Shown: positions 14,558-32,712, counted from the first letter of the stretch. The stretch: 32,712 nucleotides of DNA from an uncultured Candidatus Peribacteria bacterium (GCA_964438925.1 CAYTMN010000001.1:9725-42436); one strand, 5' to 3'. Made by a program: numbers and translations. The notes: a model not told the origin generated them from the sequence alone.

Positions 14558-15586
14558 ATGAATATTTCTATTTTTGCAGCGATTTGATGTAAAAACCTCT
14601 GAGACGAACTCATCCTAAAAAATGAAATAGAAATTTTAGAAAAAAAGTATAAAAAAGAAGAGCAATTTCCAAGATTTAGAGTCTTTAGCTATGCGCCAAA
14701 AAAACCTTTTTTTCAAAAGGAAAATGTCGAATATGTAGAGTATTTTCCAAATGGTTCTAGACTAGGGAACAGGAAAAAAAACCTGAAAAATTATCTCCAA
14801 TTCCTCAAAACTATTTTTTGGTCAGACCTCATAGTTATAGGTGGAGGAGGACTGTTTTACGATGGGGAAGTTCAAGTATCAGACAAGTCACTTGATCTTT
14901 GGCTTTTACGTATGAAACACTTTCGTTTTTTTAGAAAAAAGGTGGTGTTTTATGCAGTAGGGGTAGACGTAAAAAACAAGCAAAATCTCGCAAAGATACG
15001 CCGTATATTTTCTGGAGCTGAAAAAGTGTATGTGAGAGATGAGACATCGAGAAGAATACTTTTTGAAAATAAAATAGCATCACATGAAATAGACGATCCA
15101 GTATTTCACGATAACCCCCTCTATAACCATAAAAAATCTCAATTTATCAAACTTCTCCACTCAAAAACTTTTTCTCTCAAAGAACTCAGCGATATAGATG
15201 TAGAAGGGAAGAGGATAGGAGTAGCGTTTCGTGCAGGGTATCTCTCTGGAGCTAACAATGAAGAGATAGAAGTCGCAAAACTTTGGGAGATGATACACTT
15301 TCTTGTTGGGAAGTGAGCAAAAAAAATTATTTTTCTCCCACATAGTATTCACCCAACAGATACTTCAGCAAATGACTACCATTTTTTGAAACAATTTGTA
15401 AGCACGAAAGTAGATGTAGTGGATACCATAGAGGAAGTGTATACATACTATACAGAACAAAAAATGGATATATGTTTTGCTATGAGGCTTCATTCTATCA
15501 TATTGAGTCAAGTCTACCATATTCCATACGTTGCCTTTTCATACTCTCAAAAGACCATCGAAGCCATAAAAAAAATCACTCGTTAA
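14558..15586 (+). CDS. Polysaccharide pyruvyl transferase family protein (CsaB/WcaK-like)
   Basis: MNISIFAAI[G]CKNL[G]DELILKNEI..., LIVIGGGGLFYD, ...VRDETS..., ...FAMRLHSIILS. Three same-frame pieces are joined by TGA. Stop TAA 15584-15586. Confidence 0.7.
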
Positions 15587-15612: not shown

Positions 15613-16236
15613 TTAGTTACAGTAAACGATAGGAGCAGTGATATCACTTGTGTTACCGTTGATTACAACAGTATCAGTTGCAGCTGGAACAGCAGGAGTT
15701 GCAGCAGTTGTACAAACTCAAGTTTTTACAGCAAGTGTACCAGTTGGATTGTATGTAGTAGCGAGTGTATTTGTAGTGATTCACATTTCAAGTCTTGCTA
15801 CATCATTTCCATCATCTTTAAGAGCCTTATCAGCAACATTATTTGCATTTTCAAATGCAGTTGATACTTCGTAGATAGAGTTAACTATACCATTTTGAGT
15901 TCCAGATACATAAGCATATCCACAGTACTCAGTAGCAGCAGTACTTGTTCCTTTATTACAACTCTTTCCATGCTTAGGATCTTTTGGAAGTTGTTGGAGA
16001 AATTTCATAATATCTACGTGGAGTGTATCTCCAGCAGGATACTCATATTTATCAGAGTATACTTGTTCTATAGCACCACGAAGAGTAGTAACGTCAGTGT
16101 ATCTTGTACTATCTCTCGCTTTTTGGATTTGACTTGTATAAACTCAAACTGCACCAGTTGCAAGGATACCGATAATCGTGATAACTACAAGGAGCTCAAT
16201 AAGAGTAAAACCTTTTAATAAGCTAATTTTTTTCAT
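15613..16236 (-). CDS. Type IV pilin / pseudopilin with a prepilin N-terminal methylation motif
   Basis: Start ATG 16234-16236. MKKISLLKG|FTLIELLVVITIIGILATGAV[G]VY is the class III signal peptide, with the G/F cleavage site and Glu at +5. The C-terminal part contains Cys residues. Stop TAA 15613-15615. Confidence 0.85.
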
Positions 16237-16261
16237 ACTGTAGGTTATTTGTAAAGTAAGT

Positions 16262-16296
16262 GCGTCAATTATATGACGCTTACCCGTTCTTGTCAA
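16262..16296 (-). promoter_or_regulatory. Consensus sigma70 promoter of the pilin gene with an operator-like palindrome over the -10 box
   Basis: On the minus strand: TTGACA (16291-16296), 17-nt spacer, TATAAT (16268-16273). The perfect inverted repeat GCGTCA (16262-16267) / TGACGC (16274-16279) brackets the -10 hexamer exactly. Confidence 0.6.
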
Positions 16297-16551
16297 AAGA
16301 AATTCACGTACTGCTCTTGAGGATTATCGCAAAATATATGTAAGTAGGAAGTAGGAAAACGAGTAGTAAACTTATTTTGGAAAAGAGTTTTTTAAAAAAT
16401 CTCAGAAATTTTTTAAAAACGCCTGACTTTATAGCATATTTAAGGGAAATTAACTTTTGTTTAATTTTTTACTACAAAAAAATACCTGTTTTTTGCTTTT
16501 TCTTTCCTGTTTCAGTACATTTTACTTTCTGTTTATTTGAGAGAAAAAACA

Positions 16552-19500
16552 ATGAAGGTGTTCAAGAAGATAATATACCTTGTACTTTTGCTTTTCTGTA
16601 AAGTGAGTCCGATTTTCTCAGCAGCAGAGTTATTACCGATACAAGTAAGTTTTCAGCAACCAACATATTTGCTGCAAAAGGACCAGATATTGGATACATA
16701 TGAGTGTGACTCTACAAAGCCAGAGTGCAAGGTAAATCTCGATATTACTCCCACTTTTTGAGATGTAAGTGCATCGAGTTTCAACTGCCATATAGACTTT
16801 TGATTTGAAACTCCAGAAAGTGAAAAGTGTAACCCTGGAACAGTGAGTATGCCAGTTTGAGAAACGCACGTACATATACAAGTTTTTGAAAAAAATAATC
16901 CATCAAATGTAGGGCAAAGAGAGATAGTCATAAAAAATACTCCTCAAAATTCAAATGTATGAATGGTTCTCGATGCAAGTGAGACGGTAGTTATTCCAGA
17001 TATTCTCTACACGTTGCAGACTCCTTCATATATTGAAAAAGTATCTACCTGAAGCCAAATATCGCAAACAGGAAGTATAGATACATATGTGTGTGACACG
17101 ACAAAACCTGAGTGTAGTGTAAACATTTCTTTAGAAGATACTTTTGGCTGATACATTCCTAAAAAATTCGCTTGTGAAATTGCATTTTGATTTGTGTCGT
17201 GAGAAGAAAACAACTGTAACCCAAATACGGTTACTTTTCCTGAGTGAGACTATATTGTCACATTTAAAATATATGAACTCCTTCATCCAGAAAATGCCAA
17301 GTCTACAAGTATAAAGATTATACATTCCACAGAAAAAAGAGAAATTCCAGAACCAATTATTACTGTCCAGAGTGGGCTTTCTCTTGTGTGAGAAATGTAT
17401 GAATGCAGAGCGAAAGATTGCACTGTAAACTTTTCTGCTCAAGACTCTTTTACTGGAGGATTTGTAGAACAAAACTATACGTGTAGTTGGGACTTTTGAA
17501 GCGGAAGTATACAAACGAGTACTTCTTGTAACCCTTGATACATCCACTTTTCTACAGGTGAGCAAAAGGCGACTCTTTCTATATATTCAAAAGAAGATGC
17601 AAGCACCTCTCGTCAAACTCAAGTGGTGTTTCATAATCCTTTTTTTACTTCTCAGACACAAACGGGCAGTACCTCTTATGAATTTTCTATTGAACCAACC
17701 TTTCAAACACCTAGCTCTATACAAACACAGTGACAAGATCTATGGTGCGATCAAAGCAAAGAAGAGTGCAAGATAAACATATCTCTTGAAGAAAACCTTA
17801 GTTGAGCTAAAGCTTCTGACATTATTTGTCGTGTAGATTTTTGATTTGTTGCATATGATGACTGTAACCCAACCACAGTTCTCGTACCGAGATGAGAACA
17901 TATTTTAATCCTCAGTATATCTCATAAAGATGTGCCAGATACTGTTATATCGAAAAAATATAATATCCATAATACTCCTCAACAACTGAGTATTCCACAA
18001 CCAATTATTTCTATCCAGAGTGGCATAATACAAGCATCATCATGATTGGTATGTAAAAATGAAAAATGTAGTATCAATGTTTCCGCTCTCGAGAACTTTA
18101 CGGGAAGTATTTCTCCTGAAAAAATAGGATGTGAATGGGATATGGGTGGTATACTAAGTTTTACAGGAGCATCACTTAAAAGCTGCAATCCTTGATACAT
18201 TTCGTTCCCAGAATGAGTACATACGATACGTTTAAAACTCTATGAAAAAGAGGACATATCAAACTTTTCCGAGAGTTTGCTCGTTTTTCAAGCCTCTACG
18301 AAAAAGATACAGGTGGCAACAGCGTGAGCACCACAAGAAGAAAGAAAAATACAAATACAGTCAGGACTTGTGCAAAGCAGTCAATGATATGTATGTGAAA
18401 AAGAAGAGTGTAAGGTCAATGTAAAATTTCCATCACATACATATGAAGCGTGCACGTGGAATTTTGGTACAGGGAAAGTCCAGAGAGAATCTAAAAGTTC
18501 ATGTAATCCTTGAATAGTTTCTTTTTGACCATGAGAGCACAATATTTCTCTCGTAGTTACAGACGAAAAAAGCCAACAATCATATGCTTATACACTTCAA
18601 TTTCAGAACTTATTTTCTGACATTCCAGAACTATATTCTCCTCCCATAGCACAAATAACTGTTGACGGAAAACTTTCAAAAAATAAAGTCATTCAAAAAA
18701 AGAACTTTATTTGTTACACACAAGACACTTGTAGCCTGAATCTTTCCTGAAAAGAAAGCTTTTCACTGGACAGAAAAAACCTCGAGTTTTACTGGGATTT
18801 TTGAGATGGAGAGACTTCAACAAAGGCCAATCCAAAAGCAAAAAAATTCTTACTTTGAACGTATACAGTAGTTTTGAAAGTGAGTGATGGGGTAAGTACT
18901 TCACAAGATGTTCTTACAGTACAAATTCTCAAAAAGTGAGATATTCCTCAGATACTCGAAGATGCACATATCTACTCTTCACTCAAGATAAAATCTCTTT
19001 TCCCAAATCCAGAATGAAAAGATAGTGATGAGTGGGTACAGCTCGAGAATACTTCATGGAATATATTGCACCTCAAATGACTCATCATACACTCAAGTGG
19101 TGATAAAAAATATACTATAGAAGAAAGTATCTATCTTTTACCACGTGCTACAAAAAAGTTCTACAAAGACCAGACACATTTGAGTCTTAAAAATCAAGAT
19201 GGGGAAGTATCTATTTGGTATAACCAACGTCGTGTAGACTTTCTTTTTTGGAGTTTTCCTGTACGACCGTGAAGTATTATCACCAGAGAAAGTTTAGAAA
19301 TATCTTCCCAGAAAGTACAAGTTTTACACGTCATTGATGGAGATACTCTGAGTATTGTTTTTGATGATGGTCACTCTGAGAAGCTCAGACTCATAGGCGT
19401 TGATACTCCAGAAACAAAACATCCAAAGAAAAAGGTCCAAGAGTTTGGGAAAGAAGCGTTTGAGTTTACTCGTACATCTCTTGAGTGACAAACGGTATTT

Positions 19501-20472
19501 CTCCAGATAGAAAAACAAAACTATAGGGACAAATATGGGAGACTTTTAGGATATATCCGTCTAGATGGACAAGAAAAGACATTTAATCAAATACTTATAG
19601 AAAAAGGATACGCTCGAGCATATCTCTATTTTCCTTTTGTATACTCAGAAGTATTTAAAAAAGCGGAAAAAGAAGCAAAGGAAGCAAAAGTATGACTTTG
19701 GGCTGATAAAGAACTTATCAAAGAAACTCTTCCAGAACCAGAGACACTTCCGCCTTTACTACATGACTTTTCTTTTTCTCAAGTCTTCGAAACTCTCGAT
19801 GATATTTCTTACTATTTTCAAGTAGAGCAGTATGTACCAAAAAATCTATCTCGGAGATCTACTATACTTGCTCTTTTCTGAGAAGATATAGAGCATAAAA
19901 AAGTGTCTAAACTGTGACAAAAAACAAAACAAGTAGCTTTATCCAAAAAAGAAAAAATTCCTTTTTCTCTCAAACTTTCTCTTTTAAAGTCATGAGTAAA
20001 AGTCTCTGGGAAAACAAAACCTTTGAGTCTGGTAAAAGTTCATATATTTCGAGAAGAAGTATCTCTACAAAGCGATAGTATAGGAAAGTTTTCCTATCTC
20101 TATACTTGACCTCTTGTAGAGTGACAACAGCTATTGAAAGTCCAGATTTTCACAGAAAATAGGGAAATTCTCAAGGAAAAGGAAAAAATATTTACCATAA
20201 CTCCTGAGTACAAAACCGCTGTTCTCCTCAAAAAACAAAAGGCAGCTGCAAAACTCAAAAACACAAAGAAAAAATCTACAAAAAAGAAAGGTGCAAAGAA
20301 AGTAAAATCTATACCTTTTCTAACAACAGTCTCAAAAAATTTTCAAGAAACTCCACAAAAATCTCTCAACTATGATATGATCTTTCTATATATATTTATT
20401 ATCGTGTGATGTGGAGGTGGATGATGATATATACTTCAATGAGTCCTAGAAAAAAGAAAACAAAAAATATAA
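16552..20472 (+). CDS. 1306-aa secreted, C-terminally membrane-anchored multidomain nuclease (seven PKD-like repeats, lamin-tail domain, SNase/thermonuclease domain)
   Basis: The frame is open from ATG 16552 to TAA 20470-20472, with only TGA interruptions. Signal peptide: MKVFKKIIYLVLLLFCKVSPIFSA. LTD at about 18982-19290: FPNPE[G]KDSDEWVQLENTS...LK[G]. SNase at about 19315-19710: VIDGDTL, RLIGVDTPET, KYGRLLGYI, AKV[G]LWAD. A Lys-rich tract follows (about 20218-20310), then a terminal hydrophobic segment MIFLYIFIIV[G]CGGG[G][G]YIL. Confidence 0.85.
16627..18960 (+). repeat. Seven tandem protein-coding repeats of about 105-130 codons (Cys-containing PKD-like modules) inside the nuclease gene
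   Basis: The recurrent pattern is C-x(5-6)-C-x-[VI]-N...C-x-[WI]-DFG...CNP[G]...G-x-H/Y. CNP codons fall at 16828, 17215, 17527, 17863, 18184 and 18502, all in the same frame. The seventh unit is a canonical PKD domain (FYWDF[G]DGETS...GTYTVVLKVSDG). Confidence 0.7.
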
Positions 20473-20499
20473 AAAAGGAAGGACAACCTTCCTTTTTTA
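20473..20499. terminator. Bidirectional terminator between the nuclease gene and the VIT-vWA gene
   Basis: AAAAGGAAGG (20473-20482), ACAA loop, CCTTCCTTTT (20487-20496), followed by a T-run. Confidence 0.75.
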
Positions 20500-20503
20500 T
20501 AGA

Positions 20504-23461
20504 TTATTTTTGCGTATCCTCTTTCTTAAAATATTTTCTTATAAAGAGTATCCAAGCAATATACTGTATAAGGAGTATTATATAAAAGAAGAAATCAAAG
20601 AGATTCATACTTCTTGAGTATCCATAATTGTAGTCATTCCACATACTACCTCTTACAGAGAAAGATTGAGACAATCATGATGAAGCTCATTTGATTCCAC
20701 TATGCACACTTGCTTCCCCAAAAGATATTCCTCTTCTTCCTGCAGAAGTGTCTGAAAACGAAGGAGTAAAAGATTCTCTTGGGTTACCTACATTTGCATT
20801 TGAAGGAACAGTTATGCTTTTTTGAGCAAATCCTTGAGGAAGCTCACGTACTGACATATCAGAGATTGGAGCAGTAATCTCAACATCACTAGGAAAAACG
20901 TCAGAGACTGGGGTAGGGAAACGTGAATTTGAAGTTGGAAAGTCTGGGAAATTCATTCTTGTAGGTTCTTTTTTTACCGTATCATACTTTGAACTATCAG
21001 AAGAATATCTTTCCAAATCTTGTCTTTGTTGCTCAGTTTGTAGAGCAATAAGAGAGTTGAATTGGTTTACTATTTTGTATCTTTTTGCTATAGATGTTTG
21101 CCAATCTGCAACCATTTCCCAATTTGTCTCATTTGCAATTTTTGACATCATAAGATTTCAAATGTATCCGGCGTATATAGTCTCTAGGGGAGCACTCCAT
21201 TCTATTTTTTCGCAAGCATCTGTAGATACTGTAGGAGGATAGAGTATTTTCCCTAGCACATCAGGGATATCTTTTTGAGAAACAACTTCATATATATTTC
21301 CTCTTGTTGCAGCAACAAGAGAGTTAAAATCTGCTTTATAAGACTTGATAGCTTGCCCTACCTTGATAACTGAAATATGATTTGAAAGTACTATTGAGAG
21401 ATTTCGTCCTTTTTGTTCTTCAGCTGAAAAGTTGAAGCTATCATCGTCAGTGACAAAAATAATACGTTGTTGAGAAATCTGATTGTTTATAATGTAATCA
21501 ATCGTAGTATCAATATCTGAGTATCCCCAGAACTTGATATCACTCACCTCACTTATCTTATGTACATCAAAGTTGTACGCATATACGTCAACATCATTGA
21601 GTTTTCCTCATTGGTTTTTTACCGCATCATATATTTCAGTATAGAGTCTATTTGCTCCATTTCTTTTAACACTTAAAGAGTTGTCAAAAAATATACTTAC
21701 TTTGTCTCCAGAATTTGACTTATCAGATACAGTCCCGCTTTGGGGCCCTGTATTTTTAGAGGTAAGTATATCAACCAGTCAAGAGGAAGGAGCAGTAATA
21801 TTATTTGAAATCAAAAATTGTAAAATACTAGGACTCGCACAGAAGTTTTGAATATCTTTTGTAGGCTCAATTTTTACATCTGCAAGAGTGAGAGTATGGT
21901 TTGAATGAAGATATTCTTCTATAGTAGCACTCTTGGTAATGTCCTCTTTTATAAGAGTGCCTTGAGTGTATACTTTTGAAATAAAAGAACTATTTTCATC
22001 ATGAGTAATATTTACAAATGAAAGTCTAGGAGAGTAGAGAATAGACTTTGTGTTTACTCAGATAGGACTTAAAAGAGTCACCTCAATGAGTTGTCTTCAA
22101 AGACTCTTGGTATCTTGGTTGCTAGGAATTGGAAAGACTCGTAAACTGTAGGTACTTTGACCTACCTTTTCTATAAGAGCTGGATCAATATTTTTTACAA
22201 GACTTTCTTCATACACTCTTCGAGCAGCTCATTTTGGAGCTATTTGTCCCATATTTTCTCCATTGAGCCCAAGCTTGAGCTCAGTTACTACAGAGTCAGG
22301 AGTAGGGGCTTCAAAGTAGATAATTCCTTCCTGATTTATTTTCGTTTTATTGGTGAGGTGAAATCTATAGGTTGTAGTCAGGATTCAAACTCCACTTTCT
22401 GGAACTGAGACTTTATTTTCTATTTCTCAAAGACTCAAAAGTACCTCAGCATTGGCTCCTACTTTGCTCATATTAGTTGCGAAAGAACGTCTATTTTGCT
22501 CAGTTTTAAGAGCGTCTTTAAAGTATGCTTCAGGTGTAGAATCATAGAGTTTTTGGAAATAATCAGTATTGTAAAAGTTATGAGCATTCAGCTTTTTCAA
22601 GATTGCCCAATCAAGAAATGCTACTTTAGCTTTTGTATAGGTTTCATAAGAGATGGACTCTGTTTGCAAAATGCGTACAGAACGAGAAATCTGATTGTCA
22701 TAAATAAATTCAAGAACTTTCCCTGAAAAAGAGAGGAAAAATAGACATCAAAAGACTAGGATTGCGATATGAAGTCCTCGTTTCTTAGAAGGGAGAGTCT
22801 GAGCATCATAGTAGGTATGAAGTGAATATATTGGACCAAGAACTGCAAGAAGTAAAACGATAAAAAAGAGGATTTGTATAAAAAATGTTCCGCTTGGATG
22901 ATCTCTTACGATTTGTATTATTCCATCTATCCATGGCTGCATGATTCCAACTTTTAATCATATAGAAACAACAAGGACATTGAGCGCTAAAAAGAAGAAA
23001 AATCAAAAAGAGTAAGAAAAAAATAAATGCTGTATCTTTGGAAAATATTTCATTTTTTGTACTGGAGTAAACCTCCCGAGGAGATATATGATTGGGTAAA
23101 CGAGAAGAAGAATACTAGTAAACCGATTGATGTTTGTATCTGTTCAATAAAAATAACCAGTAAGAGCTATAACTCAAAGACATAGTGGTATAAAGAGTAA
23201 AAAGAAGTTTTTTTCTGTCTCTTTTCAAAGCAAGTATATGATTGCAGCAATAACTACAATCAGTACTCATGAGAAGATATAAAGCGCAAGAGTAAATTCT
23301 CTAAACTGTGAATAGAGCAATACAAGAAGAAAAAACCCTAAAACTAAAGAGAGGATGATGTATACACCACTCAAAACTTTTTTAAAAATATCAGGATATT
23401 TTTTAAGTGTTAGAGAAATGGATGTGAGAAACTGAATAAGAGAATCAAGCATAAACTTCAA
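20504..23461 (-). CDS. 985-aa membrane protein: polytopic N-terminal domain, VIT domain, vWA domain, C-terminal TM helix
   Basis: Minus-strand pieces ending at 23461, 22942, 22669, 21547 and 21151 share one frame and are joined only by TGA. Start TTG 23459-23461 or ATG 23450-23452, stop TAA 20504-20506. The VIT-like segment is [10 protein letters not shown]...[18 protein letters not shown]...APK[G][10 protein letters not shown]...[11 protein letters not shown]. The vWA domain has an intact MIDAS motif in FFDNSLS and a IIFVTDDD strand. About seven hydrophobic helices precede the VIT domain. Confidence 0.7.
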
Positions 23462-23482
23462 ATGATGAAATAAAGTAAAGGC

Positions 23483-23511
23483 ATTATACTAGAATCCCTC
23501 AAAGAATTCAA
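23483..23511 (-). promoter_or_regulatory. Sigma70-like promoter of the VIT-vWA gene
   Basis: On the minus strand: TTGAAT (23506-23511), 17-nt spacer, TATAAT (23483-23488). Confidence 0.5.
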
Positions 23512-23540
23512 GATATTGCAAAGCAATCAAGAGAAAACAC

Positions 23541-23568
23541 TTGCCTTTTTTCTCTTTTTTCTTATAAA
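23541..23568 (+). promoter_or_regulatory. Possible promoter of the structured RNA
   Basis: TTGCCT (23541-23546), 16-nt spacer, TATAAA (23563-23568). It lies about 40 nt upstream of the closing helix of the RNA candidate. Confidence 0.35.
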
Positions 23569-23605
23569 ATAATGAATTTACCTTCTTACATATACACTAT
23601 GTGAA

Positions 23606-24047
23606 GACCTGAAAACTGTGGGGATTGTATCATAGCAACTGCTTCAGTGACACAGACTTGAATGGTATCTTGCCCGCTGACAGATAAACTCTATCCAAGA
23701 GACAAACACATCTGTTATAACCCTGCGCAAGCAGCAAGCTGGGGAGCTGAAAGTGTTGCCCATATTTTATGGCTTTGAGAAGGTCTAGACCCAAAGGCAA
23801 AAGCACAAAGAGGACTTCCTGTGGTAGAAACTCCAAAACCTACTCTTGTAACTTTGTAGTATGGCATCAGTACATTTTCCTATCAACTGTGCAGACTGTA
23901 GTGAGTTTGAAAACTGAAAGTGTGGTTTGACACAAGACCCTAAAAGTCATACTCAAAAGTGTTCACATCCTGACTTAGCAGAGAGGTGGTCTGTGGAGAG
24001 TAGAGCAGCTTCAAACAGAGTTCATAGAGTTATGGAGTTTTGAGTCT
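23606..24047 (+). ncRNA. Candidate structured ncRNA with an RNase P RNA (bacterial type A)-like core topology
   Basis: This lies in a 622-nt gap between two minus-strand genes, with no convincing ORF in any frame even under code 25. Nested long-range helices: AGAC..AAAACT (23606-23617) with AGTTTT..GTCT (24036-24047); AACTCTAT (23687-23694) with ATAGAGTT (24024-24031); CAAGAG (23696-23701) with CTCTTG (23843-23848). Local hairpins include CTGC-GCAA-GCAG (23723-23734, GNRA loop), 23644-23649/23675-23680, and 23931-23939/23988-23995 enclosing 23944-23949/23971-23976. Several strings resemble conserved RNase P regions: GCUGAAAGUG (23746-23755), GGUAGAAACUCCAAAACC (23823-23840), and ACAGAG just 5' of the P4-like 3' strand. 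The canonical GGAAAGUCC element and the bulged U are not evident. Confidence 0.4.
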
Positions 24048-24083
24048 GAGGAGATGAGAAGATAGTTCAAATCTATAGATAAG

Positions 24084-25196
24084 CTATTCGCTAAAACTCT
24101 TTCATACGACATACCCCGCACTCCACGCTACTTGGAGGTTAAATCCTCCTGTTTTTCCTGTGAGGTCCAGCACTTCTCCTATAAAGTAGAGTCCTGGGAC
24201 TTTTTTACTTTGAAAATGCTTATCGAGCTCATCAACTACCACTCCTCCTCACGTGACTTTTGCTTCAGCCCAAGACCTCAGGTCATTTATGTGCAGAGTT
24301 GTTTCCATATTTTCTTCATCAAGTCCAAAAAAGTCTCTCACTCTCTTGGTAAGGTGTTCGCTATCAAACACGAGCTTTGCGTGTATATGGTCTTTTATGT
24401 AGAGGTGTTCATCTTGGTGAATTCACTTTTCTCGCAAGTGTTCTCAAAGTCGTATAACTCCGTTAAAAACGAGTGGTCCTGAAAGTCAAAAATGCGTAAA
24501 AAGAAACGAACCATACTCACTATATATCTCTTTAGTATCATCAAACAGTCGAAAGGTAAGAAACACGGTACTTCCAGATAACTCCTTGAGATCTTCTTTC
24601 GTGATGAGAGCGCAGAGTCACTTGTACGGTTCTACAAGCTCTATCCCAAACTCTTTTGCAAGTCTGTACCCCCAACCGTCAGTTCCAACTTGAGCAAAGC
24701 TTTTCCCTCCAGTACTCACAACTACTTTTTTTGCATAAATTTTCGTTTCTCATGATTGTATGACAAATATCTCATCTTCTTTTTTGAGGCTCTCAACTCA
24801 AAAGTTACACAGTATTTGTGTGTTGTTTTCTCTGAGTTCTTTTTCCAGAAGTGTTACAAGTTCTTGCGCTTTTCCACTATGGAGGATGATACGACCTCTA
24901 TCTTCTATATGTGTTTGGACTCAGCGACTCTCAAGCCAGTCTATCATATCGTAGTTGGAAAACTTTTTGAAAAGAGAGTGCAGTACCTTTTTATTTTTCC
25001 CAAAATAATCATTTTCTGGAGTGATATCAATATTGGAAACATTACACCTTTCACCACCTGAGAGGAGCACTTTTTTTCCTATTTTCTCGTTTTTTTCTAT
25101 GAGGATTTTCGACATAGTTTTAGGAGCATTGATACAGGCAAATATCCCTGCAGCTCAGGCTCAAATCACGGCAAGATCATACACTTTCTCGTTCAT
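24084..25196 (-). CDS. HI0933/YhiN (BaiN)-family FAD-dependent oxidoreductase
   Basis: Start ATG 25194-25196, stop TAG 24084-24086. The N-terminus MNEKVYDLAVI[G]A[G]AAGIFA is an FAD GxGxxG with TGA at 25161-25163 and 25155-25157. Other family motifs: KVLLSGGERCNVSN, VVSTGGKSF, THF[G]LSGP, VT[G]GGV, GEVLDLTGKTGGFNLQVAWSAGY. Confidence 0.85.
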
Positions 25197-25367
25197 AGTT
25201 TTTTTGAGATTAACGAGCTAAAGTATACCTATAGAGAAAATATATGCAATTTTGCCCGCATACATTGACTATTTTATTATAGTGTATAAAATATAAAAAT
25301 AGCCAAGGATATATAGTGTCATTTTGAACAATGTTCTCTTTTCTCTTTGCTTGTAAACGTGAATAAT

Positions 25368-25787
25368 ATGCTCGATTCTTTAGTGCAATTTGACCAAATT
25401 AAAAAAGGGGATTCTGTTCCAAGAGAGGTACAGGACTTTTATGTGGAGCATCGGGTAGAGGAGTATGGAGTGCATCTGCTTAGCGGTATAAGAGACCCCT
25501 ATCTTGTAGCACAAGATCTCAGCGAAGTTTCTCTATGTGTAGGAAAAATAGACGGTCAGGTTATAGGTATTACTACGTATCGTGAAGATGTAGGGGATTT
25601 TGGCCTTATTTTGGTACACCCTGATTTTAGAGAACAAGGACTATGACGGCAACTGTGAAATAAAGTTTTAGATATCCTCACTAAAAGTCACCATACTATC
25701 TCGGTACAAATAGGTTCAGAAGAGGGAGAAAGGCTGATACATAAACTTAAAAAAGCTTTTAGCCATATTCTTTTCGATATTGTATAA
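25368..25787 (+). CDS. GNAT-family N-acetyltransferase
   Basis: ATG 25368; an in-frame TTG at 25347 is an alternative start. The segment ...VIGITTYREDVGDFGLILVHPDFREQGL[G]RQL[G]NKVLDIL matches GNAT motif A (Q/R-x-x-G-x-G/A), with both glycines encoded by TGA. Stop TAA 25785-25787. Confidence 0.7.
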
Positions 25788-25794
25788 TTTTGAT

Positions 25795-25822
25795 TTGCAA
25801 AAGGTTACAAGTTCACTAATAT
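25795..25822 (+). promoter_or_regulatory. Sigma70-like promoter of the metK leader
   Basis: TTGCAA (25795-25800), 16-nt spacer, TAATAT (25817-25822). The riboswitch P1 helix starts about 17 nt downstream. Confidence 0.45.
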
Positions 25823-25837
25823 ATTAGTACTTGATAA

Positions 25838-25950
25838 ACATATCAAGAGAGAGTGAGAGAGAATAGGCTCGTCATCATCACTCCAGCAACCTACCCCGCT
25901 AAAGCGCGGCAAGGTGCTAATTCCTACCCTCTTGCAGGGAAAGATATTTT
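25838..25950 (+). promoter_or_regulatory. SAM-I (S-box) riboswitch aptamer
   Basis: CAUAUCAAGAGAGAGUGAGAGAGAAUAGGCUCGUCAUCAUCACUCCAGCAACC...GCGGCAAGGUGCUAAUUCCUACC...GGGAAAGAUAU. This matches the S-box consensus blocks (AUCAAGAG, GCAACC, GGUGCUAAUUCC, and P1 closing with GAAAGAUAU). It lies directly upstream of metK. Confidence 0.85.
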
Positions 25951-25977
25951 CACACACTTCTTTTTTGAAGCACAAAA

Positions 25978-26012
25978 ATCTTTCTCGCTCGGGGAGAGAT
26001 TTTTTTATTTTT
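25978..26012 (+). terminator. Expression-platform terminator of the SAM riboswitch
   Basis: ATCTTTCTC (25978-25986), loop GCUCG, GGGAGAGAT (25992-26000). The 9-bp stem includes two G-U pairs and is followed by TTTTTTATTTTT, 15 nt before the metK ATG. Confidence 0.75.
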
Positions 26013-26026
26013 ATAACTTTTTTGTT

Positions 26027-27154
26027 ATGCACTACTTTTTAACTTCAGAGTCAGTAACGAGCGGTCACCCAGATAAAGTCTGTGACCAGATAAGTGACGC
26101 AGTACTTGACGCATGTTTTGCGGTTGACCCAAACTCTCGTGTAGCTTGTGAGTGTCTTGTAACCACTGGAACGGTTATCGTTTCAGGAGAAATAACTACA
26201 AAAGCATGGGTAAACTTTCAAGATGTAGCAAGAAAAGTCATACGTGAAATCGGGTACAACGAACCTGAAGCATGTTTTAGTGCTGATGATGTATGAGTAC
26301 AAATCCTTATCAACTCACAATCTCCAGATATCGCTCAAGGAGTAGATACAGGAGGAGCAGGGGATCAAGGACTTATGTACGGATACGCAACCAACGAAAC
26401 AGACAACTATCTCCCAACACCTATCAGTCTTGCACACAAACTTTCTCGCAGACTTGAAGAAGTTCGTAGAAACGGAACTCTTCCATTTTTGCTTCCAGAT
26501 GGAAAGACACAAGTTACAGTAGAGTATGCTGAGGGGAAACCTCTCAGAGTAGATACAGTAGTTGTTTCAAACCAACATAGAGCAAGCGCAACAAACGAAG
26601 AAATTCACCAAGGTATCATAGAGCACGTTATCAAACCAATTGTTGGAAATCTCACAGATGAAAAAACAGTGTTTCATATCAACCCTACAGGACGTTTTGT
26701 AACTGGAGGACCAAAGGGAGACTGTGGTCTTACTGGAAGAAAGATTATCGTAGATACGTATGGTGGTATTGGTCGTCACGGAGGAGGTGCGTTCTCAGGA
26801 AAAGACCCATCAAAAGTAGACAGAAGTGGAGCATATATCGCTCGTTACCTTGCTAAAAACATCGTAGCATCAGGAGTATGTGATAGATGTGAAATCCAAA
26901 TCAGTTACGCTATCGGAGTTGCTGAACCAGTATCTATCTTTGTAGATATGTTTGGAACTGAAAAAGTAGCAAGAGAAAAAGTGATCGAAGCTGTAAAAAC
27001 AAGTTTTAATCTCACTCCAAAGGGAATCATAGAAAAACTCAATCTTCGTAATCCTATCTACCAAAAAACCGCTACATACGGACACTTTGGAAGAGACGAT
27101 GTGAGTTGGGAAGCACTTGATAGTGTAGATGTTTTCAAAAAACTCCTTTCGTAA
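26027..27154 (+). CDS. metK: S-adenosylmethionine synthetase
   Basis: [28 protein letters not shown]..., then SADDV[G][36 protein letters not shown]..., then [21 protein letters not shown]...[19 protein letters not shown]. The two standard-code pieces are joined by a single TGA at 26294-26296. Stop TAA 27152-27154. Confidence 0.97.
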
Positions 27155-27156
27155 AT

Positions 27157-27183
27157 AAAATCCCGCAGATGCGGGATTTTTTA
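27157..27183. terminator. Bidirectional terminator
   Basis: AAAATCCCGC (27157-27166), AGAT loop, GCGGGATTTT (27171-27180). It lies between metK and the convergent HIT-like gene. Confidence 0.8.
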
Positions 27184-28170
27184 TGCCAATATTTGTGTGA
27201 TTTTTCTGCGAAAATCATTTGAGTTTGGGGTTGTAGGATTGGGCACTGCTTTTCTGGAAACAGGAAAACCAGCTATTTCCATAGAAGCCCCATGTTCTTT
27301 TGGATGACCTTCCTCAGTAACTCTACGATAGTTAAACTTTATTCTCAAAACTGTTTTTCCTCCCTGAGTAAAACTAGCCAAAGAGTAGGCCATCAGTTCT
27401 TTTGTAAACTGTAGTCAAAGAGAGTTTACAGCCATCCCAAAGTCGTAATCTATACTTTTATTAAAGCCAGTAGTATAGCTTTCCAGCAAGGAAAACAAAA
27501 GCATCATATACTTTGTATTTCTTCCTCAAGTGAGGGAGTTATTATCAGGCAAAATGATATCAAGCGCGTGATGTGTATTATTGTACACAACAGATGGTAT
27601 GGTTTGAGCGAGACTACTGTGTCTTTTGAGATAGTCTTCAAATCCATCAAGAAGATACTTATTTTCATCGTTAATACTGAGCTTTGAGAGAAACTCATCT
27701 ACTCTTCCAACCGTAACTCTCATATGGTTTTCGACGGTTGGCTCTGTACGAAATAGAGAGATATGTATGTGGGGACGAAAAACAGACTGTGCTTTCCCAT
27801 TTCATGGTTGTGTTGCTGCATTTATACCGACCACGAGCTTGTACTCTCCAGTAGCAAGTTGAGATTCATAGGTCTTTTCCAGCCCACTCACGACTTTTTT
27901 CAAGAGTGCATCTAGGCTTTTTCTCTCTTGAGGAGTACAGTCAACGAGCGTTCTCACTCACATATTTTCTCCTCCATAGACGATCATACAATCCATATCT
28001 GAGTATGGAGCGGCTTTTTCCGCTAGTACCCAGTCACCAGTATCCAATATAATCGGTGGATTATCGGCTCTGAGATTTTGTCTCATTCACGTAGCACTTC
28101 GTAGGCTCTCGAGATTTCCAACATCTCGAGTATAGCCGTGTGCCTCTAACTCTGTGTGTACTATCCTCAT
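27181..28170 (-). CDS. HIT/GalT-superfamily-like protein (degenerate His-triad HIHIS), 329 aa
   Basis: Start ATG 28168-28170, stop TAA 27181-27183; the pieces are joined by TGA. The segment ...LVVGINAATQP[G]NGKAQSVFRPHIHISLFR resembles the HIT core (G-x-N-x-G...Q-x-V-x-H-x-H-x-H-x-x-P-R), with Ser in place of the third His. The overall length and two-lobed layout recall GalT/Ap4A-phosphorylase-type enzymes. Confidence 0.5.
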
Positions 28171-28288
28171 ATATGTATAAAAAATTTTGGAGATTATAGA
28201 CCTATATTGACGAAATACAAGTTACATTTAAAATATCTTGCAAATCACCAAAAATTCATACAATACAATCATATTTTTTTATATAAAA

Positions 28289-28588
28289 ATGTGTATGAAT
28301 AAAAGAGATCAAGCACTCCAAGAGTGTAGAAATGATTTAAGTGGATATTGTAGGGGAAATGCTCACTTTCTAGCAGCAGGAGGAAATGTATATATGGAGT
28401 CAGATTTTGACGTGACTATTGCAGTGGCTCAAAGAGTAGATGCTATTAGAAAAAAACTTTGAACAGTTACAGGACAAGAGTTAGAGCAAATACTCAAAAT
28501 TCAAAACATTCGTTTTATCCCTACACCACAGATTCAAGACTTTTGCTCAATGATACAAACACAACTTTTAGAAAAAATCGCAGCATAA
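28289..28588 (+). CDS. Hypothetical protein, 99 aa
   Basis: ATG 28289; ATG 28295 or TTG 28238 are alternative starts. There is one in-frame TGA. Stop TAA 28586-28588. No recognisable motif. Confidence 0.5.
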
Positions 28589-28594
28589 AACTCT

Positions 28595-29164
28595 ATGGAC
28601 CATATCTGGAAAAGAGAAGTTGATGGAGGACAAAGTGATGTGTTTAAAGATGGAAACACCTGTGTAAAAGTGTACTCAGGGATACAGCGAGACGATATAG
28701 TGCTCTATCATACCATACAGTCACAGCTTTGCACACGAGTCTGTACTATTCTCACAAAAGTACAGCAGTATCAAGGACAAGAGGTACGAGAAGTAGAAGT
28801 ACAGTTTCTCTTACTTGATGAAAACTCAGTAGAGTCTCAAAAATACTCTCGTACAGGTATAAGTCAGGTAACCACAAGAGTTCCTTTTATAGAGGGGCAG
28901 AGTTTTGCTGAAGCATTTTCAAAAGACCCTATGTTTTGGGAGTTTGTACAAAAACGAGTCATCAGGTTTTTACGTCAACAGGTACCATCTCTGAGCATAG
29001 GAGCCAATCAATTGGCAAGACATAACATAAAGGTAGTATGATTTGCACAAGGAACACTCAAACTTCTCGTTACCGATATCGCTCAAAACATCAGAACATT
29101 TATAGATGCAAACAAAGATAAAGTAGAACAACTTACCTATTTGAGAGAGAGTAGAGAAAAATAA
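28595..29164 (+). CDS. Hypothetical protein, 189 aa, with weak protein-kinase-like features
   Basis: The ATG is 6 nt after the previous stop. GGQSDVFKDGNTCVKVY resembles a Gly-loop followed by a VxK strand. ARHNIKVV[G]...LLVTDIA resembles catalytic-loop and DFG-type elements. Stop TAA 29162-29164. Confidence 0.55.
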
Positions 29165-29226
29165 GGAGCAAACTTGTATTTTCAAAGAAAGTATGGTCTA
29201 ATAGATACATACTTTTTTATCTATAT

Positions 29227-29919
29227 ATGGGGAAAAAACCACTTGAACTTCGTGGAACTATAGGACCGAGCAATGACTGGGCGCCTGTGATACAAAAAGG
29301 AGACACACTCCCACTCACTCCCACAGAAAAACTTTCAAATACTCTAGAGATACAGGAACTAGAGCTTTTAACAGACTCACTCGTACTCTTCATACAAAAA
29401 CCAAACTTTAAAAAATCGGTCGACAAACAAACACTCAAGCTGGTACAAGCAAGCATCGTAGATACAAAACTCTTTATACGCTCAGCGCGCCTCCAAAAAG
29501 AAACACCTCAAAGTATTAGAGAGGTAAAGTGAGAGGTAGCAAAAACCCTGTCCCTCGCACAAAAAGCGATGATGGCATACGATACGCAAATACTTCTCAA
29601 AAGTATGTCTATAAAAGAAAATGCCCTTTGGCTATCTCCTCATAAACAAAAAGTGTTAGAGATGGAACAACCACTTGCGTATACCTATCTTAAAAACCTG
29701 CTACAGGTAAAAACGCATATAGATGCTTGGCTCAAAAATGGAATCATAGATGAGTTCACATGGTGGAATCTCCTCAAGTTTGCCAATCCTCCGAGAATCC
29801 TCCAGATCATTTATACCATAGAACAAAACAAAACCTCACAAGAACATGAGAGGCAGATGATACAGGAAGCAGTAAAAGAGTTTATGAAAGTAGTACTCAA
29901 AGATTCACAAGAGGCATAA
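29227..29919 (+). CDS. Hypothetical protein, 230 aa
   Basis: Pieces 29227..29532 and 29569..29919 share one frame and are joined through TGA 29530-29532. Stop TAA 29917-29919. No recognisable motif. Confidence 0.6.
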
Positions 29920-29931
29920 GCCTCTTTTTTA
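29909..29931. terminator. Short bidirectional terminator
   Basis: AGAGGC (29910-29915), ATAA loop (which contains the stop codon), GCCTCT (29920-29925), then T6. Confidence 0.6.
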
Positions 29932-30168
29932 GTACTGACTGTAGACTTTTTCTATGGTGATGTTTTTTGCTTGTATATGAAAGAGTATCTTGTATTCGCC
30001 AGCTCTAAAACAGTAAGACTGGGTAAAACGAGAAAGCATCTTGAGGTTTGGGAGACGTGGAAAACTGGAAAGAAGAGATATCTTTTCTATGATATATGCT
30101 ACATCAGTGTCAGGTACTTCTGAAAATACACTTACTGAAGCCTCACTAAAGAGTATATTAAAAGCCAT
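29929..30168 (-). CDS. RelE/ParE-superfamily type II toxin
   Basis: 79-aa ORF with no internal TGA. The C-terminal segment ...SYCFRAGEYKILFHIQAKNITIEKVYSQY matches the RelE/ParE pattern (y-R-x-R-v-G-d-Y-R-i-i-Y-x-i...I-x-I-x-x-V). Its start overlaps the upstream small ORF by 11 nt. Confidence 0.7.
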   Translation of the reverse strand: MAFNILFSEASVSVFSEVPDTDVAYIIEKISLLSSFPRLPNLKMLSRFTQSYCFRAGEYKILFHIQAKNITIEKVYSQY

Positions 30169-30349
30169 ATTGTTTTTTTACTTGAGCTAAAGTGAGTCCT
30201 TTTACTTTTTTGGCACTTTTTTCGAGTATCTTGAGGTCCACAACGTCTTCAAAGTCCTTTACTTCTACGTCAGGTTGGTCTTTGAGGTTTGTGAGAAATT
30301 TATCTCTTGCTATCTGGTTTTTAAAGTTGAGAATGATTTGTAGAGACAT
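30158..30349 (-). CDS. Putative cognate antitoxin, 63 aa
   Basis: It sits immediately upstream of the toxin and overlaps it, which is the typical type II TA layout. I do not recognise the sequence family. Confidence 0.5.
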   Translation of the reverse strand: MSLQIILNFKNQIARDKFLTNLKDQPDVEVKDFEDVVDLKILEKSAKKVKGLTLAQVKKQYGF

Positions 30350-30544
30350 AGTTGTATGATAAGCAAAATAGGACTCAATAGTACGAGTTTTTGCGAAAAT
30401 AGCAAATAAAAGCGAAAAACCCTGACCTGCTCTCGCTTTATAAAAACTGAAAATAAGAAAAGTTATAAAAATAGTAAAAGTACTATAAGTTATACAAAGT
30501 ATAAATAGTTGGAAAAGTAATACTTTTAATACTGAAAAGAAATG

Positions 30545-31126
30545 TTACTGAATGTCTCTGATAGCTTTATTTCAAGCGATAGTTGTTTGTATTTTTTCCT
30601 GTATTTTGTGTATTTTTTCTTTGCTAGCTTCGTCAAGTTCGATGTGTATATCTTCAAACATTTTTTTGAGAGCTGTTTTTTCGGTATCACTCAGATAGTC
30701 GTGAGAAAATATCTCTACAAAACTTTCGTTTTGCATCATTTGTTGTTGTACGTATCTTACGATATCCTCTACTATTTCTTTAAAAATTATAGCTATATCT
30801 ACCTCTATTTCATCGCTTTTTTCACTTACTAGGTAGTTGAGACTTTCACGATCATCTATGTCTATGATACTTTCAAGATACTGAAATATGAGCCTATACA
30901 CTACAGGCAAATGTTTTTGTGTTCTGTAGTTTTGTATAAGAGTTGCTATTTCTTGTGTCTCATCAACTATATCTTTTCCTACGAGAAATAGAGAGAGTTC
31001 TTTTTTGTCTTCAGAACTGATATTTTGGCTACTTATAGTATCTCTGAGACTGAGTATAGATGTTTGAATGTTTTCTCTGCGTAAGACATAGTCAAACAAG
31101 AAATTTTCCACAATAGAGTCAGACAT
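30545..31126 (-). CDS. Hypothetical acidic helical protein, 193 aa
   Basis: The standard-code ORF 30572..31126 extends through TGA 30572-30574 to TAA 30545-30547. Confidence 0.6.
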
Positions 31127-31187
31127 AAGAAAAAGTTAGGGAGTATAAGTAAGAGTATAACACCGTTTAAGAAAAATCAAAGAGTAA

Positions 31188-31538
31188 CTACACTCCTCAC
31201 TGAACAGACAAGATGAGCAGTATATCGACCATCTTTTTGTGAAAGTCTTCGAGAAGCGTAAGTACCTCTTGTTTACTGCGAGAGTTTTGAACCTGTTGTA
31301 TCAACCCTTGGAGGACTTCTTTGGTCTCTCATGGTCAAGAAAAGTCAAAAACTACCGACGCAGAGGAAAGTCTTTCCTCAAACTTTCACAGATAGGTTTC
31401 CATACTTTTTGCTATCTTTTTTGCGAGGGAAGCATGTAGAGTATTTCCTTCAACAGATGTTATCATCTGTCTGAGTGTTTCAAACCCTTCAGCGATCTTA
31501 ACATCTGAAGTATCAAAAGGTGTAGGAGTATCGGTCAT
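31188..31538 (-). CDS. Hypothetical protein, 116 aa
   Basis: ATG 31536-31538 to TAG 31188-31190, open only when four TGAs are read as Gly. The start lies 12 nt after the stop of the upstream gene, which suggests one operon. Confidence 0.45.
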
Positions 31539-31550
31539 AGAGTATAGGGG

Positions 31551-32117
31551 TTAGAGTATCTTTCCGTCTTCAAGCTGAAATATAACAGTACTGCTCTCAA
31601 TAACAGGGAGACGCAATATGTGTAAGGCGCTTCTTTTTTCTCCTTTCAGTTCCACAAAGAGGTGGTAGATATTTCCTTCTCCCTCTGTGTTTACAAATCT
31701 TTCTAACTGAGGGGATGAGCGTTGTTCCAGAAACTTTTTTTTGAGTGTATCTAGTGGTTCAAAAGTAAAAGGTACTTCAGCCATACTTCCTGCGTGTAGT
31801 AGTGGTGCAGAGAGTGTTTCTTTACAGAGAACAAGTCATCTGTCGTGCGGAGCAGCGGTCATACTTTTTTTCCCAAAACTCACAACGACATCACCTACGT
31901 TTGTGTCTTTTTTTACCATTATTTGTACCTTTCCAGTTATAGGATCGTGTATATCAAAAGGCTTTTTTGTAGGAACGACAGAGACTTGGTAGTTTCTTTT
32001 TGAGGTAACACCTACATACAAAACCCACATCGCTAAAAAGTAGAAACAACCGATGATTCAAAAAGTGATGAGAAATATACCTTTTTCAAAAAGTTCAGCA
32101 AAATCAGAAAGACTCAT
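31551..32117 (-). CDS. Hypothetical membrane-anchored protein, 188 aa
   Basis: Start ATG 32115-32117. The N-terminal hydrophobic helix is GIFLITF[G]IIGCFYFLAMWVLYV. Pieces 31836..32030 and 31551..31784 share one frame and are joined by TGA. Stop TAA 31551-31553. Confidence 0.55.
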
Positions 32118-32145
32118 AAAAAAATTTTAAAATATAAGATAAAAC

Positions 32146-32712
32146 CTACAGTTTTTCTCCAGAGAAAAACCTCTGAACCACATACTCTACAAATGGTCAT
32201 GGTTGGCGTATGATAGTGTTATGATCAGCGTCTGGTACTACTGCAAACCCGTCAAGATACTTTTCAGGTGCACCTCAAAACTTTGCCTTGAGTTGTTCTA
32301 GAGGAAATGCTGCATCATTTTCTGCATGTGTAAGCGACACTTTTACTCAAAGACTTCTCACTTTTTGTATGTAGGGAAGAAGTTGTACTTTTGGCATGAG
32401 TTTCAGTGAGCTCCAGAGCATATTTGCGACATTTCCAGTCCATCCATCCCAGTCTTTTGCAACCCTGTTTTTTGTTGCGTCATAGGACGTAGGTGTTCCA
32501 CGAAGGATGTCTTTTACTTTTCCTGAAACTTGTTCTTTGATAGTTTTCACCACCAGTCAAAGTACTGTTTTTTCTTCTGCGAGACCAACGGTACTGTTGA
32601 GAACAATGTTTTTAAATCTGTGAGGCAAAAGTTGTGCTGCTATAAGTGCATGGATCGCTCACTCTGAGTGAGCAAAAACATCGGTTTCTTGTATACCTTG
32701 ATGGTCTAGCGT
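32146..32712 (-). CDS. Alpha/beta-fold hydrolase (5' end lies outside the window)
   Basis: The frame is open from the window edge to TAG 32146-32148. The nucleophile elbow FAHSE[G]AI has TGA 32659-32661 on its final Gly. The C-terminal segment ...VVPDADHNTIIRQP is consistent with the catalytic His region. Confidence 0.7.

Follow-up and report, generated by a model that had tools for sequence, protein, structure and literature searches.

The central question raised by positions 15,613 to 20,472 of a 32,712-nucleotide stretch from an uncultured Candidatus Peribacteria bacterium (GCA_964438925.1 CAYTMN010000001.1:9725-42436; the whole stretch is hereafter the window) is whether a type IV pilin gene and a divergently transcribed gene for a 1306-aa surface nuclease work together. 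A reading made from the sequence alone had proposed that they form a DNA capture-and-degradation module. The surface nuclease and the type IV pilus/ComEC machinery of that proposal were both recovered in our analysis, but a dedicated pilin-nuclease module was not. With a probability of about 0.62, we favor two independent monocistronic genes that are neighbors retained by chance, in which the product of one would be a surface nuclease of the staphylococcal nuclease (SNase) family that scavenges nucleic acids with no tie to this pilin. The organism is a tiny recoded Gracilibacterium in which TGA encodes glycine, and its genome bin comprises 1.06 Mb on 99 contigs at 81% completeness. Code 25 (TGA = Gly) was needed for the window, with 42 in-frame TGA codons found in the nuclease frame; a table 11 reading of the locus gave short fragments only and was hence rejected. 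The code-25 models of the two divergent genes reproduced the 315-nt intervening region of the sequence-only reading exactly.

The catalytic domain of the nuclease was examined by profile, alignment, and structure prediction. A Pfam scan of the 1306-aa protein identified SNase (PF00565) as the sole catalytic domain, at 96.4 bits (E = 1.7e-27) against a cut-off of 21 bits, and the NCBIfam assignment was NucI-like. By phmmer against the Protein Data Bank (PDB), residues 919-1052 were aligned to residues 9-142 of Staphylococcus aureus nuclease (E = 1.9e-23), while the AlphaFold2 (AF2) model displayed an SNase fold at aa 915-1060 with a Foldseek template-modeling score of 0.83 to the same enzyme. 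The equivalent residues include (i) the Ca2+ ligands, with D931, D951, and T952 corresponding to D21, D40, and T41; (ii) the catalytic residues, with R946, E954, and R997 corresponding to R35, E43, and R87; and (iii) Y995, Y1024, and Y1026, corresponding to Y85, Y113, and Y115. All of these were invariant in 24 family members except Y1026, which was almost so, and no catalytic residue was lost in the alignment. The catalytic domain is a genuine member of the SNase family, and its active site is intact. Within the bin, SNase domains were detected only in the window gene and in a second copy on contig C29.

The product of the gene at 15613-16236 is a genuine type IV pilin, as had been suggested from its KG/FTLIELLVV motif. 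It scored above the cut-offs of Pfam N_methyl (E = 1.6e-7, 31.1 bits) and the TIGR02532 prepilin domain (33.2 bits), and GspG-like N-terminal profiles were also matched. Its N-terminus consists of the class III leader MKKISLLKG followed by FTLIELLVVITIIGILA, with cleavage after KG, the FTLIE sequence including Glu5, and then a hydrophobic helix; the protein has four Cys residues. About 31 genomes, most of them from the same family, each carried one full-length orthologue of 42-57% identity.

Conservation of the pairing was then assessed from 36 nuclease loci and 26 pilin loci, with open reading frames (ORFs) re-called under code 25 and labels assigned by BLAST against the window proteins. Direct divergent adjacency of pilin and nuclease was found in the window genome only (1 of 61 genomes), and the conserved synteny expected of a module was thus largely absent. 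Among the 13 family genomes in which both genes could be placed, the two were within two genes of each other in five and far apart in eight; these eight comprised two closed genomes with a separation of at least 50 kb and others in which the genes resided on different contigs with other neighbors visible. The pairing was detected in none of 14 genomes from the other two families. In four other genomes a pilin orthologue was located near an SNase-bearing homologue, in each case with one or two unrelated genes between them: a ~130-aa transmembrane/HEPN-like gene in G001 (same genus), a GT2 glycosyltransferase gene in G008, a transmembrane/HEPN-like gene plus a GT2 glycosyltransferase gene in G023, and a transmembrane/HEPN-like gene plus a coiled-coil ORF in G028. 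The syntenic large protein of G016 was found to have the lamin-tail domain (LTD) and PKD domains without SNase. The pilin gene, by comparison, adjoined the pyruvyl transferase and/or RuvA gene in 10 of 13 family genomes (18 of 32 overall), and elsewhere its divergent neighbor was trigger factor or a ribosomal-protein-sized gene cluster. The pilin-nuclease junction is less stable than the pilin-housekeeping junction. When a tree was built from the PKD7-LTD-SNase region, copies near a pilin gene were scattered among those that are not, a distribution that fits an ancestral arrangement which would have decayed repeatedly.

These data bear directly on the idea of a co-regulated module, in which the pilus of this pilin would bind DNA and deliver it to the nuclease, with both genes driven from the 315-nt region. 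The divergent arrangement in the window is consistent with this idea, as are the loose proximity in G001, G008, G023, and G028, the presence of type IV pilus machinery, ComEA, and ComEC in the genome, and the finding of no other type of secreted nuclease. We nonetheless regard it as very unlikely, as other genes intervene in every proximal case outside the window genome, the two genes lie apart in most genomes of the family and in every genome of the other families, and the G016 partner is devoid of SNase. In addition, the pilin keeps its strong promoter beside trigger factor, the ribosomal-protein-sized cluster, and other genes, and with about ten pilin genes per genome (roughly ten further pilin-motif ORFs were identified here) some adjacency is to be expected.

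The shared upstream region was examined next. A sigma-70-type promoter matching the consensus at 12 of 12 positions was identified upstream of the pilin gene, and a similar -35/-10 pair was detected upstream of most pilin orthologues, whatever gene adjoins. Based on this perfect promoter and the single conserved orthologue, the pilin, which has a promoter of its own, is probably strongly expressed and a major subunit. No strong promoter on the plus strand was present among the matches listed for the spacer, and a motif common to the two genes was looked for in the shared region and not found. A GCGTCA/TGACGC palindrome around the pilin -10 box was considered as a conserved operator for both genes and rejected; it is part of the pilin -10 region, is specific to this genome, and is absent as a conserved element in the orthologues. 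An Rfam scan of the spacer gave no RNA. The nuclease gene is monocistronic because a bidirectional hairpin terminator, shared with a convergent gene, lies at its 3′ end, and the pilin and nuclease genes are each effectively monocistronic. The coordinates of these and the other features are collected in Table 1.

Table 1. Features of the pilin-nuclease locus (window coordinates) and of related loci in other genomes (L-numbered loci).
Feature	Coordinates	Strand	Evidence or remark
Type IV pilin gene, 207 aa	15613..16236	-	N_methyl, TIGR02532 above cut-off, GspG-like N-terminus, orthologues
Divergent spacer, 315 nt between the two start codons	16237..16551	.	Code-25 gene models
Pilin promoter TTGACA-17-TATAAT, sigma-70-type	16268..16296	-	12/12 consensus match
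Surface nuclease gene, 1306 aa, 42 TGA = Gly codons	16552..20472 (stop codon included)	+	ORF, Pfam, NCBIfam
Sec-type signal peptide, aa 1-24 (MKVFKK / IIYLVLLLF / ...IFSA, then A)	16552..16623	+	Hydropathy and conservation; cleavage site inferred
Seven tandem PKD-like beta-sandwich modules, aa 28-795	16633..18936	+	Internal alignment, Pfam, AF2
Lamin-tail domain (LTD), aa ~805-905	18964..19266	+	Pfam in orthologues, AF2 beta-sandwich
SNase (thermonuclease) catalytic domain, aa 916-1056	19297..19719	+	Pfam, NCBIfam, PDB phmmer, AF2, Foldseek
Disordered linker, aa 1057-1134	19720..19953	+	AF2 pLDDT 30-38; disorder over 72 aa, 1062-1133
Ig-like beta-sandwich, aa 1135-1216	19954..20199	+	AF2 pLDDT 77-92; missed by the sequence-only reading
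Lys-rich tract, aa 1217-1272	20200..20367	+	AF2: helix first, then disordered
C-terminal transmembrane helix and basic tail EKRKQKI, aa 1273-1306	20368..20469	+	AF2 helix 1274-1305
Bidirectional hairpin terminator, common to nuclease and convergent VIT-domain gene	20468..20501	.	
HEPN-like gene in relatives	L029:9099-9500, L055:4921-5328, L028:10350-10757, L071:3528-3920		Also in L077, L079, L086, L075, L069, L051, L027, L056
YTLDLKD.PQDIGGG motif, family f3	L032, L033, L035, L037-L041, L043, L046, L050		

The small gene that intervenes in several relatives was examined further. It encodes a conserved protein of ~130-135 aa in which an N-terminal transmembrane helix and a basic stretch are combined with a C-terminal HEPN/HepT-like domain carrying the RNx3H motif (LHKLRNRLVHE). 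Depending on the relative, the gene separates pilin and nuclease, adjoins only the pilin, or immediately precedes only the nuclease, and it was found to be linked to the pilin and to the nuclease more often than the pilin is to the nuclease. It was not found in the window genome by tblastn under code 25, an absence that is soft given the incomplete bin, and the same search of the spacer for a remnant of the gene returned noise only. One conceivable history is an ancestral cluster at the family level, composed of a major pilin, the divergent HEPN-like gene, and then the nuclease, with the latter filling the vacant place of an EndA-like entry nuclease in the import of nucleic acids by pilus and ComEC; the window would be a compacted form from which the small gene was lost. 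We consider this history highly improbable. As a separate observation, G012 harbors an SNase-less LTD/PKD family member (L054:5824-8646, minus strand) that is divergent from, and 183 bp away from, a pilin-like gene (L054:8829-10374, plus strand) that is different and much larger (>500 aa), and this represents a second, non-orthologous juxtaposition of a pilin and a surface protein.

The remaining architecture of the nuclease was determined from profiles, AF2 models of modules 1-3 and of residues 796-1306, and conservation, and it agreed with the signal peptide, seven PKD-like modules, LTD, SNase domain, Lys-rich tract, and C-terminal anchor that had been read from the sequence. Self-BLAST of the nuclease for repeats gave nothing at 1e-3, and the repeats were instead delimited from the Cys/CNP motif and a MAFFT alignment on the pattern C..C..N..FG..(C)NP..G. 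The modules are ~105 aa each, with six being a 4-Cys variant and module 7 a canonical PKD with WDFGDG. Pfam PKD matches were limited to module 7 (PKD_4, 39.8 bits), module 6 (PKD, 23.9 bits), and, weakly, module 3; modules 1, 2, 4, and 5 were assigned as PKD-like from the internal alignment and AF2 only. Modules 1-3 were modeled as tandem beta-sandwiches (mean predicted local distance difference test [pLDDT] score of 83), and their nearest PDB structures were adhesin/receptor arrays. The LTD scored 22-27 bits in the window protein, under the cut-off of 34.3, and reached 35-46 bits in three orthologues; its AF2 model was a confident beta-sandwich (pLDDT ~90). The Ig-like domain had a weak Big_13/E-set match in the G023 orthologue. 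The Lys-rich tract contained 17 K, 0 R, and 2 D+E per 56 aa and was Lys-rich in the family consensus as well.

Targeting signals were found at both ends of the protein. An n/h/c signal-peptide pattern was detected at the N-terminus of 33 of 38 homologues, and a hydrophobic C-terminal helix with a basic tail was present in almost all of the 38. The signal peptide and transmembrane helix are predicted from hydropathy, AF2, and conservation, and the helix with its basic tail would imply a type I topology (N-out/C-in). Two other modes of attachment were rejected: (i) an N-terminal lipoprotein anchor, as LLLFC is no lipobox (F at -1) and a signal peptidase I site after IFSA is the preferred, predicted alternative; and (ii) LPXTG/sortase anchoring, as the LP.TG motif is absent from the nuclease and its C-terminus is the transmembrane helix and basic tail. 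With the PKD array N-terminal and the anchor C-terminal, the LTD/PKD array is distal and outward, and the SNase domain is therefore membrane-proximal. This geometry is opposite to the earlier view of a catalytic domain held at the surface on a long stalk, of which the surface anchoring was retained but the stalk was not.

A nuclease near the membrane could also serve as a competence-entry nuclease analogous to EndA/NucA, in which SNase would nick or degrade one strand of DNA brought by any pilus and ComEC would import single-stranded DNA, with pilin linkage unneeded. The genome-wide search called for by the sequence-only reading recovered comEC, pilB, pilC, and pilD, together with comEA: four matches to the assembly ATPase (T2SSE), four two-domain T2SSF platform genes, a prepilin peptidase (Peptidase_A24, C1:1727-2035) on the same contig as the pilin, ComEC, and a ComEA-like HHH_3 protein. 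A surface nuclease that feeds or aids nucleic-acid uptake is plausible on this genome-wide evidence. An entry role would also be in keeping with the position of the SNase domain ~210 residues from the transmembrane anchor, near the membrane where ComEC sits, with a juxtamembrane Lys-rich tract that could hold DNA, and with the result that no match to the EndA-type Endonuclease_NS profile (PF01223) was found in the genome, where the NucA/NucB-type family was not searched genome-wide. SNase of the S. aureus type is, however, a processive, non-specific endo-exonuclease that yields short 3′-phosphorylated products, not long single strands. Moreover, no linkage to com genes was observed in any locus inspected, the long adhesin-like array would be superfluous for such a role, and the genome in which the EndA-type gene was sought is incomplete. 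An entry role is in our view distinctly unlikely.

A further premise of the module, that these bacteria do not synthesize nucleotides de novo, was weakened by the presence of pyrF in this genome and by the gene set of a family member: the closed genome of Gracilibacteria bacterium 28_42_T64 (G026) has been reported to encode most de novo purine and pyrimidine steps and to be without the pentose-phosphate pathway (PMC6851277). The gene purD, sought as a marker of de novo purine synthesis, was not found in the window genome, an absence that is likewise soft at this completeness. Uptake of host or environmental DNA for nucleotides by type IV pili and ComEC is the standard reading in these lineages (PMC8080830, PMC6851277, PMC11452946), and strongly expressed endonucleases have been noted (PMC11452946).

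To place the nuclease among its relatives, homologues were compared across the order. Some part of the protein was matched in 57 of 61 genomes, and the full SNase-bearing architecture, including both targeting signals, was found to be kept in homologues from 26 other related genomes in addition to the C29 copy. Public databases yielded ~25 clusters, of which the named ones were all Gracilibacteria and auto-named "thermonuclease family protein" or "PKD domain-containing protein". When a 265-aa fragment was used to look for LTD-SNase fusions outside Gracilibacteria, most matches were single-domain SNases, and the few short LTD+SNase entries resemble code-11-truncated fragments of this family, such as a 223-aa protein on a G023 contig. 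The nuclease is an uncharacterized, apparently Gracilibacteria-specific architectural variant of surface-anchored SNase nucleases. On the side of annotation, many public translations (P0004-P0026) show W where the window protein has TGA-coded G (e.g., LRLIWVDTPE), and other public family entries are truncated, including the 223-aa "thermonuclease" on the G023 contig, which is labeled Peribacteria; hence these records had been annotated with code 4 or code 11 rather than code 25. Homologues of family f3 were also observed to have a conserved YTLDLKD.PQDIGGG motif directly before the C-terminal transmembrane helix, which is missing from the window's family and might direct sorting or processing in a lineage-specific manner.

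Divergence within the protein was most apparent on contig C29 (G000:C29:129-14447), a second syntenic copy of window 16552-32712 that is without the VIT-domain gene and is most likely a co-binned close relative. Identity to the window was 36% for the nuclease compared with 76% for the HI0933-like protein, 91% for MetK, and 94% for the last ORF; within the nuclease, SNase was 68% identical and the remainder 29-45%. The ectodomain is thus evolving far faster than the flanking genes. This divergence, the differing number of PKD-like modules among homologues, a fold like the adhesin beta-sandwich arrays SiiE and GhpA, and the giant PKD-bearing surface proteins proposed as host-interaction factors in related predators (PMC8080830, PMC9793634) would all be compatible with a host-contact or attack protein. 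In such a role, the fast-evolving PKD/LTD ectodomain would recognize a host surface or matrix, after which the nuclease would break down nucleic acids of the host or of a biofilm in the course of epibiotic predation, or guard against entrapment in extracellular DNA. However, binding specificity cannot be read from sequence, and rapid divergence would also be expected of any exposed protein under phage or immune-like pressure; the role furthermore overlaps with scavenging and does not exclude it. We view host contact as the principal function as possible, though unlikely.

For the favored reading of an independent scavenging nuclease, the following course of events is proposed. The nuclease would be exported by Sec, with the signal peptide cut after A24, and would reside in the membrane as a type I protein held by its C-terminal transmembrane helix, with the short basic tail in the cytoplasm. 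The Lys-rich segment, Ig-like domain, and flexible linker would carry SNase a short way out from the membrane, and the LTD and seven PKD-like beta-sandwiches would reach further out through the wall or S-layer; these two elements and the Lys-rich tract probably contribute substrate or wall binding, reach, or adhesion. The SNase domain, presumed to be Ca2+ dependent, would most likely cleave DNA and RNA of extracellular or host origin in a non-specific manner at the cell surface, and the resulting 3′-phospho oligo- and mononucleotides could enter salvage of bases, ribose, and phosphate. DNA uptake by pilus and ComEC may use these products with no specific tie to this pilin gene. The role would be scavenging, possibly along with host contact. 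Several points weigh against this reading. The loose proximity of the two genes in 5 of 13 family genomes, spread across deep branches, suggests an ancestral cluster, and such ancestral proximity could mean a past or weak functional link. In addition, the absences of EndA, purD, and the HEPN-like gene are soft in a bin that is 81% complete, and the products of SNase are not the form that ComEC imports, with no transporter or phosphatase route traced.

Comparison with known systems placed the nuclease in relation to several families. S. aureus Nuc2 is tethered to the surface by an N-terminal helix. The window protein shares with this membrane-anchored enzyme and with the secreted Nuc a homologous SNase domain (~35-38% identity) in which the Ca2+-ligand and catalytic residues are kept; unlike these small, single-domain proteins, it is 1306 aa with a C-terminal anchor, seven PKD-like modules, an LTD, and an Ig-like domain. 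YhcR of Bacillus subtilis, which has no outer membrane, is a wall-anchored, Ca2+-dependent, sugar-non-specific nuclease of >1000 aa with SNase-type domains; it is sortase-anchored via LPXTG and carries OB-fold and 5′-nucleotidase/metallophosphatase domains. The window nuclease is similarly a large, multidomain, surface-held SNase-type nuclease of a cell that lacks an outer membrane, but has no LPXTG, no nucleotidase domain by Pfam scan, and a transmembrane-helix anchor. The catalytic domain of ExeM (Shewanella) and Xds (Vibrio) is an endonuclease/exonuclease/phosphatase (EEP) domain, whereas that of the window protein is SNase, and its Pfam scan gave no EEP match. The likeness to ExeM/Xds, and to a protein of Izemoplasma (PMC8289736), lies in the fusion of an LTD to an extracellular nuclease within a large, envelope-associated protein that is implicated in using extracellular DNA (PMC6085458). 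A 1049-aa LTD/nucleic-acid-binding/nuclease protein is encoded by the DNA-degradation loci of Izemoplasma (Wasmund et al., PMC8289736); this protein and ExeM/Xds have other sorting signals and are without the PKD-like array, and the Izemoplasma loci link nucleases to transporters, a linkage not seen at the window locus. The window nuclease lies outside the Nuc2, YhcR, and ExeM/Xds families because it has no LPXTG, no nucleotidase domain, no EEP domain, and a C-terminal rather than N-terminal anchor. Similar to EndA (Streptococcus pneumoniae) and NucA (B. subtilis), it is a membrane-located nuclease in a cell with type IV pilus/ComEC uptake, but those proteins are small, competence-regulated, and of unrelated folds, and the window protein is without Endonuclease_NS and has no com-gene linkage seen. 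The giant PKD surface proteins of Absconditabacterales/Gracilibacteria (Vampirococcus lugosii and relatives) are from the same clade, use code 25, and are membrane-localized multi-beta-sandwich proteins (PMC8080830, PMC9793634); their descriptions report no nuclease domain, and the word "nuclease" is absent from the text of the Vampirococcus paper.

The neighborhood of the two genes was also surveyed. The pilin gene is convergent with a CsaB-like polysaccharide pyruvyl-transferase gene (14558-15586, plus strand), an arrangement seen in 13 genomes that makes it the most stable neighbor of the pilin. On the other side, the nuclease gene is convergent with the gene for a 985-aa VIT-domain membrane protein (20504-23461, minus strand) that has N-terminal hydrophobic segments and a C-terminal transmembrane helix with a basic tail; this gene is inserted between the nuclease and HI0933-like genes, which are adjacent in C29 and G008. 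The surrounding window genes are housekeeping in nature, encoding SecA, RuvA, an RlmKL-like methyltransferase, an HI0933-like protein, and MetK. The sole Rfam match in the window was a SAM riboswitch (RF00162; 25837-25950, plus strand) that precedes the gene for S-adenosylmethionine synthetase and, at 46 bits, exceeds the gathering score. Because the riboswitch covers this interval, metK must actually start 3′ of the GTG at 25853.

Gracilibacteria and their relatives are uncultivated and probably host-dependent, and their supply of building blocks is inferred from genomes alone. For these bacteria the negative result is as important as the nuclease itself: the pairing of pilus and nuclease is not a conserved unit and therefore should not be perpetuated as a system. 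The advance is modest, given that automatic annotation already calls the family thermonuclease and that uptake of this kind is the established view. A conserved, surface-tethered, and apparently active nuclease is a concrete candidate for the enzyme that initiates nucleic-acid scavenging or host attack, and the speed at which it diverges identifies it as a protein exposed at an interface.

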